Shown here: piece after piece, positions 5,925-57,550 of the stretch
Numbering within the stretch: the first letter of the stretch is position 1
Layout of the letters: each line of letters opens with the position of its first letter
NCBI GenBank assembly: GCA_963783695.1
Contig: CAWAOM010000001.1
Location: 289,938 to 353,937, forward strand
Origin: an uncultured Gammaproteobacteria bacterium
GTDB taxonomy: Bacteria; Pseudomonadota; Gammaproteobacteria; Steroidobacterales; BM003
Reading direction: 5' to 3'
DNA length: 64,000 bases
Translations under genes and position numbers: made by a program
Notes under the pieces: generated by a model
Told to the model about the DNA's origin: nothing
The model's database searches: none
Seen by the model: the letters and a program-made list of their open reading frames with translations, nothing else

Positions 5925-8900
5925 CTAGGATTTGCTGCCCGTTTCGCGGGCTACCGCGTCCTTGTCTTTCGCCTGAGCCTCGGTTGAGGGAATCGGCAGC
6001 GGCTTCTGTTCTTGCAGGGCAGGACTGTTGCGCCTTTCGCCAGAGGCCTTCTGCGCCGGTTCAGGCGCGGGTTTGGCCGATTCGGTGGCATTCTCCTTTG
6101 CCTTGGTCGTAGCCGGCGCTTGCGGCGATGCCGCAGTCTCGGGCAATGCCTCGGTCTTGGGCGATCCCTCAGTCTTGGGAGATGCCCCGGTCTTGGGAGA
6201 TGCCCCGGTCTTGGGAGATGCCCCGGTCTTGGGAGATGCCCCGGTCTTGGGAGATGCCCCGGTCTTGGGAGATGCCCCGGTCTTGGGAGATGCCCCGGTC
6301 TTGGGAGATGCCTCGGTCTTGGGAGATGCCTCGGTCTTGGGAGATGCCCCGGTCTTGGGAGATGCCCCGGTCTTGGGAGATGCCCCGGTCTTGGGAGATG
6401 CCTCAGTCTTGGGAGATGCCTCAGTCTTGGGAGATGCCTCAGTCTTGGGCGATGCCCGGGTGGACGATTTTTGCACAGGAGCGGTATTTGCCGGAGGCAC
6501 CGGTGCGGCCGCAGTCTCTCCGCTGGGCGTCCGCACGCGCGTTTCGACGCGCGTGGCAACGGGCTCTGCCACGGTTTTCGAAGCCGCCGTCGGGCGTGCC
6601 GGCTGGTTTTCCCGCGACGGTTGAACCGGCCCAGGTTTCGCAGCGGTTTTGGCGCCGTCACCTCGCTCGGCGGGTGCCGGATCCTCTGGCTTCGGCATCG
6701 GCGCGGGTTGCATCGAAGCGGCAGACGAATGTGCCGGTGCCGTTTGTACGGGACCGCTGTTGTTTTCCGCAGGCGCCGTTTGTTTTGCCTCTGCCGGTGT
6801 TTGCCTTGCGTCGTCGCTGCGGGAGGTTTCCTTTGCGGATGCCTGGATTGCTGGCTTTGCTGCTGGCTTTGCGCTTTCCGGCGCGGTGTCGGGGCGAGAA
6901 GCGGGTTGTGGTTTGGCCTGCGCGTTGACGGCGTCGTTGTCGGACTTGGAGCGGTCAGCTGTCTGCGCCGAAACCGACTTGTCGCTCGTTTTTGGGGCCG
7001 TGGTTTTTTCGCCTACATTGCCGGTACCCGTTGCAGCTGGGATGGCAGCGCTGTCCGTGGCGGTCGCTGTTGTGGCCTGATCGGCGGGTTTGCGTCTTCC
7101 GCCACGTGAGCGGCGCGATCGGCGCGGTCCGCTGCGACGCTCCGTTTGCGCAGATGAGTCGTTGGCCGCTTCCGGGGTCTTTTTTTGCCCGTTGCTCTGT
7201 GCGCTTTTGTCCGGCTGCCCCTGCGCAACAGCGTTGTCGGCGCGCTGCTTGCTGCCGCCACGTTTGCCACGGCGGCTGCGGCGGGCCCGCGTCGGCTTCG
7301 ACTCGCCGCTGCCATTTTCCTTTTGTTCCTCACCTGCAGGCCGGTTGGCTGTCTGCCTCACGTCCTTTTTGTTCTCGCTGCCAGTGCCGGCTTTTCGCGC
7401 CGGTTTCTTGCGCCGCGAATCCGAACGAGTGGTTCGTTGGTTCTTGCCGCGACCCGAGGGCCGGGTTGTGTTTTGCTCGCTGCCCTTGTGCCTTCCGCGC
7501 GTGGCTGGTTTATTTTTTTCCTGTTCCGCTTTTTGCCCACCGGAGCCGGTCAATGATTGCCATATCTTGCGCAACCACGCACCAAATCCGCCGCTCTCCG
7601 CTGGAGTCTCCGCTTTGGGCGATGGCGATGGCGGTGGCGGCGCCGGTGTCGGTGCCGGGCGGTCCGGAACCAGACTGGCGACCGCCGGTTTTTCGGCGAC
7701 GGGTTTCGCTGCAGGCAGACCTGAAGCGTCTTCGTTTTCCTCGCTTTCGCTGGGAAGCTGGTAACTGACTGCGGTGAACTCCGGCAGCTCCGCCTCGTCG
7801 TCACGGACCCGGCGAATCGAATAATTCGGGGTTTCGAGCTGGGGATTTGCGACCAGGCGAAGACTGACGCTGCTGGCAACCTCGATGTTGTTTACCCACT
7901 CACGTTTTTCATTGAGCAGATAGGTTGCTACCTCAACCGGGAGCTGTGCGACGACCATCGCGGTGCGCTCCTTGCGGGCCTCCTCGCCGAGCAGGCGCAA
8001 TACGGCGAGAGATAATGACTCGACGTCGCGGATTACACCAAAGCCGCTGCAGCGCGGACACACGATGTGACTGGATTCACCGAGAGACGGGCGCAGCCGC
8101 TGGCGGGACATTTCGAGAAGCCCAAAGCGGGAGATGCGTCCAATCTGTACCCGTGCACGGTCCATGCGCACCGACTCTCGCAGGCGGTTTTCAACCTCGC
8201 GCTGATTCCGTTGCGGGCCCATGTCGATAAAGTCGATGACAATGAGTCCACCGATATCGCGAATGCGCAATTGCCGGGCAATTTCTTCGGCTGCCTCGAG
8301 ATTCGTGTTGAACGCAGTCGCTTCGATATCGTCGCCTTTCGTTGCGCGTGCGGAGTTGATGTCGATTGAGACCAGCGCTTCGGTGTGATCGATTACGATG
8401 CTGCCGCCGGAAGGCAGGCTGACGCTGTGACTGAAGGCCGACTGAATCTGGCTCTCGATCTGGTAGCGGGTAAAGAGAGGGACCTCTTCCGCGTAGCGTT
8501 TGATCTTGCGTTCGTTATGCGGCATTACCCGCTCAACGAATTCCCGTGCCTGGTTGTACACCGACTCGTCGTCGATGAGGATTTCGCCGACATCGGCGCT
8601 CAGGTAGTCGCGCAGGGCCCGTATGATCGCGTTGCTTTCCTGGTAGATCAGTGAGGGTGACGGACCCTGAACCGCGGCGACTTTAACGGCTTCCCAGACT
8701 TTGAGCAGATAATCCAGATCCCACTGCAGCTCTTCCGGGCTCCGACCGACGCCGGCAGTGCGCACTATGACTCCCATGCCATCGGGGAGTTCGAGTGCCG
8801 CGAGGGAATCGCGCACGAGGTCCCGGTCAGGCCCGGTGATGCGTCGGGACACGCCACCAGCGCGCGGATTGTTCGGCATCAGCACCAGGAATCGTCCCGC

Positions 8901-9266
8901 GAGACTGATAAAAGTCGTCAGCGCAGCGCCCTTGGTGCCGCGTTCTTCCTTTTCGACCTGGATGACGATGTCCTGACCTTCTTTCAGTACATCGCGAATA
9001 TTGACTTTGCCACCGGACCCGGGGCGATTTACGAAATATTCCGGCGAAATTTCCTTGAGCGGCAGGAAACCGTGGCGTTCTGATCCGAATTCGACAAAAG
9101 CAGCCTCGAGGCTGGGTTCCAGCCGGGTTATCTTGCCCTTGTAAATATTGGCCTTTTTCTGCTCTCGGCCTGGCGCTTCGATATCCAGATCATAGAGTTT
9201 CTGACCATCGACGATTGCAACCCGCAGTTCTTCCTGCTGGGTTGCGTTTACCAACATTCTCTTCAT
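5925..9266 (-). CDS. rne: Ribonuclease E
   Basis: N-terminal [22 protein letters not shown]1 domain, catalytic core, Zn-link CPRCSGFG. Then a long low-complexity Arg/Pro/Lys-rich C-terminal half with Arg-rich segments ([13 protein letters not shown]). Divergent from rluC as in E. coli. Confidence 0.95.
6127..6450. repeat. 18 tandem copies of an 18-bp unit (gatgccYcRgtcttggga) inside rne, encoding (A/G)SPKT(E/G) hexapeptide repeats
   Basis: Counted directly. Seven consecutive identical copies at 6181-6306. Variant copies differ by one or two bases, and the outermost copies are the most diverged. Confidence 0.95.
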
Positions 9267-52232: not shown

Positions 52233-52444
52233 CGAATCGTTCCTCCAGGGAATCAACGGGCCGGCATTAGCGCCGGCCCTGCATACAGACTAAATATACG
52301 GGCCGTGGTTCCAAATTCAAGGCGGCCTTGCGTCCAACGCGCAGGGCAGTCAGAATCGCCGCCCGAGTGTACACGGTTAACAGTCAGGGACTGCAGATAT
52401 TAAACAAAAATATTAAATACAATTCCTAACTAATTGAAATAAAA

Positions 52445-52535
52445 GGAGAGGTGGCAGAGCGGTCGAATGCACCGGTCTTGAAAACCGGCATCGGGTAACT
52501 CCCGATCGAGGGTTCGAATCCCTCCCTCTCCGCCA
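52445..52535 (+). tRNA. tRNA-Ser (anticodon UGA), class II with long variable arm, CCA encoded
   Basis: GGAGAGG acceptor pairs with CCTCTCC. The anticodon arm CCGGTCTTGAAAACCGG is identical to E. coli tRNA-Ser(UGA) as I recall it. Variable arm CATCGGGTAACTCCCGATC, T-arm GAGGGTTCGAATCCCTC, discriminator G plus CCA. Confidence 0.93.
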
Positions 52536-52540
52536 TACTA

Positions 52541-52566
52541 AAGAACCCGCGAAAGCGGGTTTTTTT
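52541..52566 (+). terminator. Intrinsic terminator of tRNA-Ser (aacccgc-gaaa-gcgggtt + T run)
   Basis: 7-bp stem, GAAA tetraloop, T-rich tail. The same hairpin recurs at the end of every 178-bp repeat unit. Confidence 0.85.
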
Positions 52567-53100
52567 GTATGGCGGAGAGGGAAGGCCTGGTGAGAACCCT
52601 GAGGTTCGACAAGCCGGGGCGCAGCGCCGGCGCAGGACGCCGCAGCGAAGCGGAGGCGCCCCGCAGGGGTGAGGCTGCAAGGCAGACGAATCTATCCCTC
52701 CTGCCAACCGACGAGTTAAAGAACCCGCGAAAGCGGGTTTTTTTGTATGGCGGAGAGGGAAGGCCTGGTGAGAACCCTGAGGTTCGACAAGCCGGGGCGC
52801 AGCGCCGGCGCAGGACGCCGCAGCGAAGCGGAGGCGCCCCGCAGGGGTGAGGCTGCAAGGCAGACGAATCTATCCCTCCTGCCAACCGACGAGTTAAAGA
52901 ACCCGCGAAAGCGGGTTTTTTTGTATGGCGGAGAGGGAAGGCCTGGTGAGAACCCTGAGGTTCGACAAGCCGGGGCGCAGCGCCGGCGCAGGACGCCGCA
53001 GCGAAGCGGAGGCGCCCCGCAGGGGTGAGGCTGCAAGGCAGACGAATCTATCCCTCCTGCCAACCGACGAGTTAAAGAACCCGCGAAAGCGGGTTTTTTA
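52567..53100. repeat. Three tandem copies of a 178-bp GC-rich structured unit (52567-52744, 52745-52922, 52923-53100)
   Basis: Aligned by eye. Copies 1 and 2 are identical; copy 3 differs only at its last base (53100). Each copy ends in the tRNA-Ser terminator hairpin. Confidence 0.97.
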
Positions 53101-53129
53101 GTATGGCGGAGAGGGAAAGCCCGGTGAGA
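53101..53129. repeat. Truncated, slightly diverged fourth copy (first 29 nt of the unit)
   Basis: gtatggcggagagggaaAgccCggtgaga versus the unit's gtatggcggagagggaaGgccTggtgaga. Similarity is lost afterwards. Confidence 0.85.
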
Positions 53130-53170: not shown

Positions 53171-53200
53171 ATAAAAACCCGGCTCATGGCCGGGTTTTCT
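53171..53200 (-). terminator. Intrinsic terminator of pntAB
   Basis: Minus strand reads aaacccggc-catga-gccgggttt followed by TTTTAT, 36 bp after the pntB stop. Confidence 0.8.
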
Positions 53201-53235: not shown

Positions 53236-54630
53236 CTACAGAGCTTTTAGTACCGCGTCGAGGCTGTCCTTGGCATCGCCAAACAACATCCGCGTGTTGT
53301 CCTTATAGAAGAGCGGATTCTCGACGCCGGCGTAACCGGTTGCCATGCTGCGTTTCAGCACGATGGTCGTGCCACCCTTCCAGACCTCCAGCACCGGCAT
53401 GCCGGCGATCGGACTGTCGGGTTCTTCCTGCGCGGAGGGGTTGACGATGTCGTTTGCGCCGATGACCATCGAGACATCGACGTCCGGGAAGTCCTCGTTG
53501 ATCTCGTCCATTTCATAGACGATGTCGTAGGGCACCTTGGCCTCGGCCAGCAACACGTTCATATGGCCGGGCATGCGGCCCGCGACCGGATGAATACCGA
53601 AGCGCACGTTGACGTCCTTCGCGCGCAGCGCTTTCGTGATTTCGAAAACCGTATGCTGTGCCTGCGCCACCGCCATGCCGTATCCCGGCACGATCATGAC
53701 TTCCTTCGCGTTCGTCAGCAGCTCGGCCGTTTCCTCGGCCTGGACAGGCACGATCTCGCCTTCGATTTCGCCACCACTTGCCGCCGTGCCGCCGCCGGTG
53801 CCGAAACCGCCGGCAATGACCGCGAAGAACTTTCGGTTCATCGCGCGGCACATGATGTAGCTCAGGATCGCGCCGCTCGAGCCGACCAGGGCGCCGGTCA
53901 CGATCAGCAGGTCGTTGCTCAGCATAAAGCCGGTCGCCGACGCCGCCCAGCCCGAGTAGCTGTTCAGCATCGACACGACGACGGGCATGTCGGCACCGCC
54001 GATGGCCATGACCATGTGAACGCCGAAGGCAAGCGCAATCAGCGTCATCAACACGAGCGGCCAGGTGCCACCGCCCAGCGCTGACTGCTGGACGAACTCG
54101 CGGCACAGCCAGATGGCCCCGATCAGCAGGATGAGATTCAGTACGTGCCTTGCTGGCAGCAGCAGCGGCTTGCCGCCGATCCGCCCGGAGAGCTTGCCGA
54201 AGGCGATGATGGAGCCGGAGAACGTGACCGCGCCGATCAGGATGCCGAGATAGGTCTCGATGTCGTGGATCGTCGCTTCCGCGCCGGTCAGCACGAATGA
54301 GTGATCCATGAAGTTCGCGTAGCCAACCAGTACGGCGGCCAGCCCGACCAGGCTATGCAGGATCGCGACGAGTTCGGGCATCTGTGTCATCTGCACGCGT
54401 CGAGCGAGCACAAGGCCGATGCTGCCACCGATCAAAAGCATAATGATCAGCAGCGTGTAATGCTGCGTGACCACCCCGAGGATGGTCGCCACCAGCGCGA
54501 GGGTCATGCCGATAATGCCGTACCAGTTGCCGCGGCGAGCGGTCTCCTGGTTCGACAGGCCGCCAAGCGCGAGGATGAACAGGATGGTCGCGGCGATATA
54601 GGAAGCGGTTACGAGTCCGGCGCTATTCAT
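53236..54630 (-). CDS. pntB: NAD(P) transhydrogenase subunit beta
   Basis: [26 protein letters not shown]... parallels the E. coli PntB N-terminus. C-terminal dIII NADP(H) domain ([10 protein letters not shown]...). Start moved to 54630. Confidence 0.93.
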
Positions 54631-54637
54631 GTTGACC

Positions 54638-56176
54638 TCACTTCCTGAACATTTCGAGCATACGTCGCGTGACGGCAAACCCGCCGGCGATGTTGATGCT
54701 CGTAATCAAAATCGTGAAAGCGGCGATCAGCATGATCAGGATGCTGTCGGAACTGATCTGCAGCAGGGCCCCGATCACGATGATGCTGGAGATCGCATTC
54801 GTTACGCTCATCAGCGGCGTGTGCAATGCGGGCGTCACGTTCCAGATGACCATGTAGCCGACGAAACAGGCCAGCACGAAGACCGTGAAATGCGCCATAA
54901 ACGACGCCGGCGCGACGGCCCCTACGCCGAACAACGCAAGGCCGCCAATCGCCATCGCGATAAGCGGTCCGGCGACCGACTTCTTCTGATCTTCCGCTGG
55001 GGTGGCGGGAGCCGGGGGCGGCTTGGCTACTTTCGGCGCTGCCGAGAGTTTCGGCGCCGGGGGCGGCCACGTGGTCTCCCCGCCGATGCAGATCGTTGCG
55101 CCGCGGATCGCCTCGTCCTCCATGTCGACGACCAGTTCGCCGTTTTTCTCGGGGGTCATGTCGGTCAAAAGGTGACGCAGATTGGTGCCGTAGAGCTGGC
55201 TCGACTGCGCGGCCAGCCGGCTTGGCAGGTCGGTGTAGCCGATCAGCGTTACCCCGTGTTTCACGACGACCTGACCGGGTTCGGTCAGTTCGCAGTTGCC
55301 GCCCTGCTCGGCGGCGAGGTCGACGATTACGCTGCCGTCCTTCATCGACTCGACCATTTCGGCAGTGATCAGGCGCGGCGCCGGTTTGCCCGGAATCAGC
55401 GCAGTCGTGATGATGATATCGACATCCCTGGCCTGTTCGGCGAACAGGGCCATTTCGGCCTCGATGAACTCTTTGCTCATGACCTTGGCATAACCGCCTT
55501 CGCCCGAACCGTCCTCGTCCGCGAAGTCGAGCATCAGGAACTCGGCGTCCATGCTTTCGACCTGTTCCTTCACTTCGGGGCGCGTATCGAAAGACCGGAC
55601 GACGGCGCCCATGCTCTTGGCCGCGCCGATCGCTGCAAGCCCCGCCACGCCGGCGCCGATGACCAGGACCTTGGCCGGCGGAATCTTGCCCGCGGCGGTA
55701 ATCTGGCCGGTGAAGAAGCGGCCAAAGTGCTGGGCGGCCTCGACAACGGCGCGGTAGCCGGCGATGTTCCCCATGGAGCTCAGCGCATCCATTTTCTGCG
55801 CCCGCGAAATGCGCGGTACGCTGTCCATGGCCAGCGCCGTAACGCCGCGCTCGGTCAGCGTCTGCAGGAGATCGGGATTCTGGGCGGGCCAGACGAAGCT
55901 GATCAGTGTTTGCCCCGGGCGCAGCATGCCGAGTTCATCGCCTTCTGGCGCCCGCACCTTGAGCACGATATCGCAGAGATCATAAATCTCGCGCGCGGAG
56001 GCGGCGATGTCGCAGCCCGCGGACCGATAGGCGTCATCAGAGAAGCTGGCATGGGTTCCCGCACCGCCCTGAACCACCACACCGTAGCCGAGTTTGATGA
56101 GCTGGGTCGCGACTTCGGGGGTCGTCGCAACTCGTCGTTCGCCCGGATGAGATTCGAGTGGAACACCGATCTTCAT
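54638..56176 (-). CDS. pntA: NAD(P) transhydrogenase subunit alpha (fused dI plus membrane part)
   Basis: [21 protein letters not shown]..., NAD-binding [23 protein letters not shown]-terminal TM helices. 7-nt gap to pntB. Confidence 0.93.
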
Positions 56177-57232: not shown

Positions 57233-57550
57233 TTTTCTGCCGGCTTGCAGCGGCGGCCGGCAAGTGGGCCGGCAAGTGGGCCGGCATTGCGGATATCGGA
57301 TATTTCGATTTGCAATTCGATCTAACGTTCGGCTTCGAGGACTCGAAAGGCGCGGCACCGCACGATGCCCCGGATCGCAGGAAGCATCCAATGGTTGCGG
57401 CTGCGCGAGCATTGACGCAGCCACGCCGTAACCTGCCATGGCTGTATGGAGGCTCGGCAGGGTCAGGTTCAGGCGCCGGTTGACGGCAGAGCCAGTGTCC
57501 AGCCGTAAATAAGACATTCCGCTTAGCCACAAGCATGGAGAGAGTCATCG

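Follow-up and report, generated by a model that had tools for sequence, protein, structure and literature searches.

In a 64,000-nucleotide stretch of DNA from an uncultured gammaproteobacterium of the order Steroidobacterales (assembly GCA_963783695.1, contig CAWAOM010000001.1, positions 289,938 to 353,937; hereafter the window), a gene for tRNA-Ser(UGA) is followed directly by a near-perfect tandem array of a 178-bp unit. We consider it likely that this array consists of three copies and the stump of a fourth of a tRNA-linked repeat (TLR; RtT in Rfam) attached to the tRNA gene. Taken on its own, the assignment to the TLR/RtT family is highly probable, and the window element is a divergent, tRNA-Ser-linked addition to a family already described, not a new kind. 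The assignment is carried by a covariance model, R1, which was built from 62 elements of other genomes, the window lineage and Escherichia coli having been left out. R1 matches each of the three window units in full length (50.6 bits, E 2.6e-11) and nothing else in the 64 kb, and the same single model recognises the four RtT copies of E. coli (70–75 bits, E ~1e-17). Core sequence and fold are thus shared with the family, the copies stand head to tail, and the first core begins 36 nt past the tRNA-Ser gene on the same (+) strand.

The TLRs were described in 1978 after the tyrosine tRNA genes of E. coli (Egan & Landy, as cited in PMC8144298); the tyrT-distal repeat of this bacterium was first described as "178 bp repeated 3.14 times". 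As quoted in PMC8144298, Rudd (1999) counted 22 TLRs in E. coli K-12, at ten loci holding one to five each. [quoted passage not shown] No report of TLRs outside the Enterobacteriales was found in the literature searched.

An initial annotation of the window had proposed, among other options, small structured RNA genes carried on the tRNA transcription unit. This option fits best: the unit is a member of a covariation-supported family of structured RNAs found immediately 3' of tRNA or rRNA genes, in the same orientation, and the E. coli members are transcribed and processed (PMC8144298). What had been left unrecognised was the TLR/RtT family itself, the complement and the copy of the tRNA 3' end in each unit, and the fact that a private terminator is the normal layout for Ser-, Arg- and Met-linked members and for the TLRs of the E. 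coli rrn operons.

Anatomy of the array

The array extends from 52539 to 53129 and is the sole tandem array called there by Tandem Repeats Finder (period 178, 3.3 copies, 99% matches). Direct comparison of the units bears out their earlier description: those at 52567–52744 and 52745–52922 are identical, the one at 52923–53100 differs from the other two in its last base alone (T to A), and the fourth copy comprises 29 nt (53101–53129) with 2 mismatches before unrelated sequence begins. The units are 178 bp long and abut without spacers, unlike the short repeats and unique spacers of a CRISPR array, which had rightly been set aside.

The tRNA-Ser(UGA) gene (52445–52535, + strand, CCA encoded) was called by ARAGORN and scores 62 bits with the Rfam tRNA model. 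Both ends of the repeat core are modelled on the final 13 nt of this gene, TCCCTCTCCGCCA. The core opens with their exact reverse complement, TGGCGGAGAGGGA, and the core end, CGAATCTATCCCTCCTGCCA, matches the end of tRNA-Ser, CGAATCCCTCCCTCTCCGCCA, at about 17 of 21 positions with one deletion. Each core is therefore bracketed by a complement (5') and a degenerate copy (3') of the tRNA-Ser 3' end; the 3' copy is recognisable but not identical, whereas by the E. coli definition the last 18–19 nt are identical (PMC8144298). ARAGORN found tRNA-Ser only at the locus, with no tmRNA or further tRNA, and a tmRNA- or tRNA-like gene was rejected as an explanation of the repeat, a weak permuted-tmRNA match falling on the tRNA end.

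Each unit has its own hairpin, AACCCGC-GAAA-GCGGGTT followed by a T run, and reading the sequence confirms that it is identical to the hairpin 9 nt past tRNA-Ser. That first terminator, with seven T, lies at 52544–52566 (+), and a terminator scan also gave a weaker reading of it on the − strand (52561–52544). Terminator 2 (52722–52744, +) is identical to it, and terminator 3 lies at 52900–52922 (+). A palindrome with arms of 31 nt (52520–52585; arms 52520–52550 and 52555–52585) spans the tRNA 3' end, the first terminator and the unit start; the inverted-repeat search scored the arms as 90% complementary.

The order within a unit is trailer and terminator, 5' complement strand, conserved core and degenerate tRNA 3'-end copy. 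In the phase of the repeat finder, unit 1 occupies 52539–52716 (+; Tandem Repeats Finder and repeat search) and comprises trailer, terminator and core. Core 1 lies at 52571–52706 (+), where R1 aligns with its model positions 1–132; cores 2 and 3, both identical to it, lie at 52749–52884 (+; R1 match 52751–52884, 50.6 bits) and 52927–53062 (+; R1 match 52929–53062, 50.6 bits). The truncated fourth unit (53073–53129, +) retains the trailer, terminator 4 (53078–53099), the 5' strand of the closing stem P1 and GGTGAGA, and must be old because sister strains carry the same end-piece.

Within the core, the closing stem pairs GGCGGAGAGGGA with TCCCTC-CTGCC; this stem, already proposed in the initial annotation, is present in the minimum-free-energy fold (−83 kcal/mol, z = −3.6). 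It encloses a conserved motif, G(A/G)UGAGAACC-NNN-AGGUUCGAC, which is followed by four more helices. According to the R1 alignment and the sequence, core 1 comprises, on the + strand, the 5' strand of P1 (52571–52582), the family motif GGTGAGAACCCTGAGGTTCGAC (52589–52610) with its hairpin P2 (52594–52607), P3 (~52610–52635), P4 (~52638–52658), P5 (CCCC-GCA-GGGG, 52659–52669) and P6 (CUGC-AAG-GCAG, 52675–52685). The degenerate tRNA 3'-end copy then supplies the 3' strand of P1 (52695–52705, followed by A at 52706). In the closed core of ~135 nt, the end stem resembles an acceptor/T-arm stack.

An assembly artefact, a dispersed element of the REP or MITE type, or a small-protein gene like E. coli tpr would each account for some features of the locus. 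Two short-read contigs (L003 and L004) break at the array, open reading frames (ORFs) of 93–148 aa span the units, and a 29-aa ORF, tpr, is annotated inside the RtT of E. coli. The array is nonetheless no artefact of assembly, because an independent, near-identical genome (GCA_942492655.1, locus L002; 98.07% identity over 8.3 kb, with 99 mismatches and 46 gaps) holds the same three full units and the partial one. Instead of the many scattered intergenic copies of REP or MITE elements, the unit has a single locus in the window: the repeat search and a covariance-model search of the whole window found no second copy in the 64 kb, in line with the earlier reading. The period is not a multiple of 3, and the ORF starting at the conserved (A/G)UG of the motif, which is tpr in E. 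coli, shows no conservation across 99 elements of the family; its lengths are scattered, 16 stopping at codon 4 and 35 remaining open to the end, which we estimate to be about the chance expectation in G+C-rich sequence. The ORFs were thus correctly dismissed as artefacts of the repeat, and all three explanations are extremely improbable.

Family relationships and RNA fold

Like the RtT elements of E. coli (rttR, in the tyrT-tyrV operon), the window cores follow immediately on a tRNA gene of the same orientation, stand in head-to-tail arrays, and open with the complement of the tRNA 3' end and close with its copy. Each tyrT-distal unit of E. coli K-12 ends in the 3' end of tRNA-Tyr and contains, at its start, the complement of that end; the region has a period of 178, 3.1 copies and 95% matches, and Rfam RtT matches it four times at 133–138 bits. 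The 178-bp period and the roughly three copies shared with the window are a coincidence, because periods in the family span 141–260. Blocks common to the window unit and the RtT consensus are GGGAAGG, (G/A)UGAGAAC, GGUUCGAC, a CCC-GNA-GGG hairpin followed by (C/U)GAGG, and CGA(G/A)U.AUCC. The window unit differs in its partner (tRNA-Ser, not tRNA-Tyr), in the intrinsic terminator within each unit, the tyrT array ending at a Rho-dependent site, and in ~7 nt inserted between closing stem and motif. Its motif begins with GGUGAG instead of GAUGAG, its 3' copy is degenerate, and it stays below the Rfam cut-off.

R1 also recognises the units of the sister strains described below (40–47 bits, E ~1e-8 to 1e-10) and the TLR of E. 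coli rrnB (40.3 bits, E 1.2e-10). Across all 118 loci found with the family motif, it identifies 167 elements in arrays of up to five, among which the window score is mid-range. The RtT model of Rfam passes on Gln- and Arg-linked gammaproteobacterial elements (50–65 bits) and fails on Ser-linked, alphaproteobacterial, verrucomicrobial, Bacteroidota and archaeal ones. Loci that it misses (L015, L027, L039, L045, L115, L126, L128, L044, L064, L092 and L037) score 25–80 bits with R1, and the curated family therefore under-covers the real one.

The fold was derived from an alignment of 62 non-redundant bacterial elements (A1). RNAalifold on this MAFFT alignment gave a sparse structure, and the helices were completed by hand and then checked by pair counts. 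Six helices result: the closing stem P1, the GAACC/GGUUC hairpin P2, P3, P4, the CCC-GNA-GGG hairpin P5, and P6. Paired cells amount to 84.3%, against 28–41% with slid partners; 344 cells are changed on both sides, against 80–116; and the covariation score is 0.308, against ~0.06–0.08 in the controls. None of 500 shuffles reached the observed pairing or covariation values. Comparison of the window unit with that of the sister strains shows seven pairs changed on both sides (0–2 in slid controls), which gives modest support because the alignment was fitted to the model. Conservation of the helices in related loci, a check named in the initial annotation, is supported by compensatory changes that keep the fold. 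G-U pairs outnumber A-C pairs by 121 to 69 (84 to 42 without P1), an excess that favours folding of the tRNA-sense strand; the result supports this orientation without deciding it, since the ratio stays below 2 to 1 and shared ancestry makes the counts non-independent.

Both P2 and P6 have one G-A on their 5' flank and another on their 3' flank (A1 columns 20–21 with 36–37 and 144–145 with 189–190; in the window, + strand, ~52592–52593 with 52608–52609 and 52671–52672 with 52686–52689). Such flanks are characteristic of tandem sheared G-A pairs, which occur in kink-turns and in domain 2 of the hammerhead ribozyme; no known motif model matched the G-A-flanked hairpins. In the sister-strain units, the letters CUGAUGA-G, a stem and C-GA reproduce hammerhead positions 3–13, with the stem flanked by tandem G-A as in domain 2. 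Unlike in the hammerhead, an invariant C and not the essential A14 follows the GA, and most family members have GGAUGA, not CUGAUGA; the window itself reads CUGGUGA and GAC where a hammerhead needs CUGAUGA and GAAA. A hammerhead ribozyme (CUGAUGAG in the sister strains) was rejected, the core being without GAAA and no hammerhead model matching at E up to 10.

Several points weigh against the TLR interpretation or against an expressed product. RtT (RF00391; cut-off 45 bits) is without a match in the window, E values up to 10 included, and the repeat unit, searched at gathering thresholds and at E up to 10, has only chance-level matches besides the tRNA; in favour of the assignment, RtT is the best of 4227 families on the sister-strain unit and matches it in full length, at 23 bits, under the cut-off, with E 0.014. 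The degenerate 3' copy in the window unit contrasts with the 18–19 identical nt of E. coli TLRs, and degenerate copies also occur in other Ser-linked members (L025, L039, L074, L115 and L128; tail match 16–24 of 36). The covariation controls correct for phylogeny only in part, and P2 shows no variation since the search pattern had fixed it in advance. A strong canonical terminator (7-bp G+C-rich stem, GAAA loop, seven U) precedes each core and the promoter scan found no promoter-like site inside the units, so that transcription would rely on read-through. The 5' strand complements the real tRNA end perfectly over 13 nt but the unit's own 3' copy imperfectly, and a read-through RNA could therefore misfold with the tRNA instead of closing into the core. 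Finally, the one early functional claim, a role of rtT in the stringent response, was withdrawn (PMC8144298).

The wider family and the sister strains

A scan for a 22-nt motif common to all variants, GRTGAGAAYCYNNAGGTTCGAC, with one genome per species, returned 118 genome loci, against ~9 estimated by chance. At about 102 of the 118, a tRNA on the same strand ends 2–76 nt upstream. The choice of partner is strongly skewed, with tRNAs for Gln (54), Ser (35), Arg (8), Tyr (4), Met (4), Pro (3), Glu (2) and Lys, Leu and Trp (1 each); these counts, over loci L015–L132, are conditional on the search motif. A 3' end copied from that of the upstream tRNA is present in 99 elements. Since members follow tRNAs of at least ten specificities, the proximity of serS to the window array, which had been raised as perhaps relevant, is without significance. 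The hosts are mostly Gammaproteobacteria, together with Alpha- and Zetaproteobacteria, Verrucomicrobiota (Opitutaceae), Bacteroidota and about eleven bins of DPANN archaea.

The archaeal bins (Nanoarchaeota, Woesearchaeota and Pacearchaeota) carry a shorter element of ~100–117 nt, 2–49 nt after the tRNA, which consists of the motif GAUGAGAACC-NNN-AGGUUCGAC, one long covarying hairpin, GAGCA and a copied tRNA 3' end that lacks the CCA. R1 gives these elements 24–31 bits. They follow tRNA-Gln at L033, L035, L038, L042, L043, L046, L065, L067, L098 and L123, and tRNA-Leu at L100.

Metagenome scans with the pattern of the window unit, and with the pattern common to the window and sister-strain units, gave no matches. 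The Xanthomonas small RNA sX4 (Rfam RF02223) has a model that spans tRNA-Ser, the trailer hairpin and the first TLR bases; it is essentially a tRNA-Ser precursor model, and the repeat core lies outside it. It passes its cut-off on a Ser-linked locus (L128:3264–3417) and matches the window partially at 52433–52585 (28.7 bits, well under the cut-off of 70).

Between the tRNA and the first element, a hairpin and T run are present in 12 of 15 Ser-linked, 5 of 6 Arg-linked and 4 of 4 Met-linked elements (21/25), and a terminator-like spacer in only 2 of 47 Gln-linked ones. Flanking terminators are usual where the partner is tRNA-Ser, -Arg or -Met, and exceptional after tRNA-Gln. The window array might instead be seen as a stack of four identical bidirectional terminators that insulates tRNA-Ser from the convergent pntAB operon, the cores being spacers. 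Each of the four hairpins is preceded by an A tract and followed by a T tract, one of them is terminator-like on the − strand, and pntB (53236–54678, −) does converge on the array. It is, however, the cores that are conserved in the family, and the terminators that are optional; pntAB, moreover, has a terminator of its own (53173–53199, −; terminator scan), which marks the border of the locus outside the repeat. Insulation may hold alongside the TLR reading, yet it leaves the core unexplained, and as the explanation of the array it is very unlikely.

The genes neighbouring the array are clpA, aat, trxB, ftsK, lolA, rarA, serS, a YccA-like gene, pntB and pntA. Through homologues of the YccA-like protein (a 235-aa ORF in the window), eleven syntenic loci were reached. 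In strains whose flanking genes are 87–91% identical at the DNA level, tRNA-Ser is 98.9% identical, and the repeat unit is ~196 nt long and ~72% identical to that of the window. Divergence is unevenly spread: the proximal 75 nt, with trailer, terminator, 5' strand and motif, are 94% identical between the window and the sister strains, whereas the distal core (window 52611–52716 against L005) cannot be aligned by BLAST although the neighbouring intergenic DNA is 87% identical. The pattern suggests that constraint is very uneven or that the distal part of the core has been replaced. One, two or three full units are present, always followed by the same truncated end-piece. The earlier proposal of a concertedly evolving element at the tRNA-Ser trailer is also right in part: units are identical within the window array, and the sister strains hold one to three copies of a unit that is ~72% identical to it.

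These strain differences bear on the only serious rival to the TLR interpretation, namely that the array is selfish or neutral repeat DNA, which recombination or slippage generated and homogenised at the tRNA 3' end, whose RNA product has no role in this organism and whose fold would last only for aiding the survival or spread of the element. Such DNA would readily account for three units that are 100% identical, for sister strains with a very different unit and other copy numbers, for a distal core that cannot be aligned between otherwise close strains, and for a strong terminator before every core; after 45 years, no tRNA-linked member has a known function (PMC8144298). Against this stand the compensatory changes that keep the helices, whether phyla or the two unit types of this lineage are compared, the excess of G-U over A-C pairs, which points to selection on the sense RNA, and the demonstrated transcription and processing of E. 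coli members (PMC8144298). We regard this explanation as unlikely, though clearly less so than the others considered.

The 3' flank of tRNA-Ser is a variable spot in these strains, as three cases differ downstream. At L012 (1–910), an IS481-like insertion directly follows the CCA of tRNA-Ser and precedes a third TLR variant; at L008 (1854–2953), unrelated genes lie downstream of tRNA-Ser; and at L010 (180–1279) and L011 (39–1138), the last TLR breaks off immediately behind GGTTCGA and foreign DNA follows, as though this T-loop-like sequence had served as a recombination site. Stacked attachment-site duplications, left as scars by the integration and excision of islands at the tRNA-Ser 3' end, would fit such a hot spot and the partial tRNA 3'-end copy in each unit. 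However, no integrase lies within ~16 kb upstream or 11 kb downstream, and no integrase or transposase domain was found in the ORFs of 36–64 kb, in agreement with the initial annotation, which had seen no mobility genes nearby. The core is conserved after more than ten kinds of tRNA in over 100 genomes and has a covarying RNA fold, the family motif had 0 matches in 2.9 million viral contigs, and BLAST of the unit against plasmid and phage collections gave matches only of the size of the terminator hairpin. An origin as integration scars is accordingly very improbable.

One such match lies in an Acinetobacter baumannii record filed among the plasmids (NZ_CP104448.1, 4.09 Mb; 2485513–2485555), where the terminator and unit start, GTATGGCGGAGAGGG, are matched at 87%. 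To judge from this match, Acinetobacter may have a comparable tRNA-Ser trailer and perhaps a TLR.

Other tandem repeats occur elsewhere in the window. A 12-bp unit, GGCCGGCAAGTG, present 2.7 times at 57255–57286, is probably trivial. At 6127–6461, within an ORF on the − strand (5925–9266), an 18-bp unit is repeated 18.6 times with 94% matches and encodes about 18 ASPKT(E/G) hexapeptides in the C-terminal tail of a 1113-aa protein. From its appearance, the N-terminus of this protein may be that of an RNase E. RNase E is the enzyme thought to process E. coli TLRs; nothing ties the hexapeptide-repeat protein to the array.

Proposed expression and significance

By analogy with the rtT RNA of E. 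coli tyrT and with RrA, RrB and RrF between the rrn terminators T1 and T2, a route to expression of the window array can be proposed. RNA polymerase starting from the strong tRNA-Ser promoter would read through the terminators at some frequency, and the nucleases of tRNA processing (RNase E, followed by 3' trimming) would cut after each tRNA-like 3' end and so release structured RNAs of ~135–175 nt. That read-through and processing take place at the window locus seems to us moderately probable. Identity over 200-plus nt between adjacent units would in turn allow unequal recombination or replication slippage, which may expand, contract and homogenise the array. As for the released RNA, our best guess is that it acts as a mimic of the tRNA end that binds or titrates a protein.

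RrA, RrB and RrF are TLRs downstream of 5S rRNA in rrnA, rrnB and rrnD of E. coli (PMC8144298). The window shares with them the succession of gene, terminator, TLR and terminator, as in rrnB, where the TLR matched by R1 sits between T1 and T2. Polymerase reading through T1 transcribes the 5S-linked TLRs; they start at an RNase E site 3 nt past 5S and end, again at an RNase E cut, 3 nt past the copied sequence (an 18-nt copy in rrnB) (PMC8144298). Like those proposed for the window RNAs, their ends adjoin the 3' end of the upstream RNA and its copy. They are short-lived, and their GGA motifs bind CsrA and Hfq in vitro, whereas tRNA-linked TLRs are predicted not to bind CsrA (PMC8144298). Unlike the window units, RrA, RrB and RrF follow 5S rRNA, occur as single copies and are without the GAACC/GGUUC hairpin. 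A release route similar to that proposed here would be that of the E. coli sponge RNA 3'ETS-leuZ, which, in the account given in PMC8144298, is freed from a tRNA precursor when RNase E processes the trailer; this RNA differs from the window units in having no related sequence or structure, no repeat and no copy of the tRNA end.

A wider proposition is that the TLRs form a structured-RNA class that crosses the domains of life and rebuilds both of its ends from the upstream stable-RNA gene, and hence are homing, self-propagating passengers of tRNA genes. We advance this tentatively and consider it rather doubtful. If it were true, the window lineage would offer a snapshot of homing, with three identical units here and, in the sister strains, one to three copies of a unit diverged by ~28%, whose distal core cannot be aligned although flanking genes are 87–91% identical.

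For the window itself, the value of the analysis is that the array can be annotated as a tRNA-Ser-linked TLR (RtT-like) and that the ORFs called across it can be discarded. Its by-products are the breadth of the family, whose core follows at least ten kinds of tRNA in bacteria of several phyla and in DPANN archaea, and a six-helix fold backed by covariation; most of the members listed here are missed by the Rfam RtT model. Work on the role of TLRs can now draw on many more sequences for comparison and on cultured hosts, Idiomarina among them.

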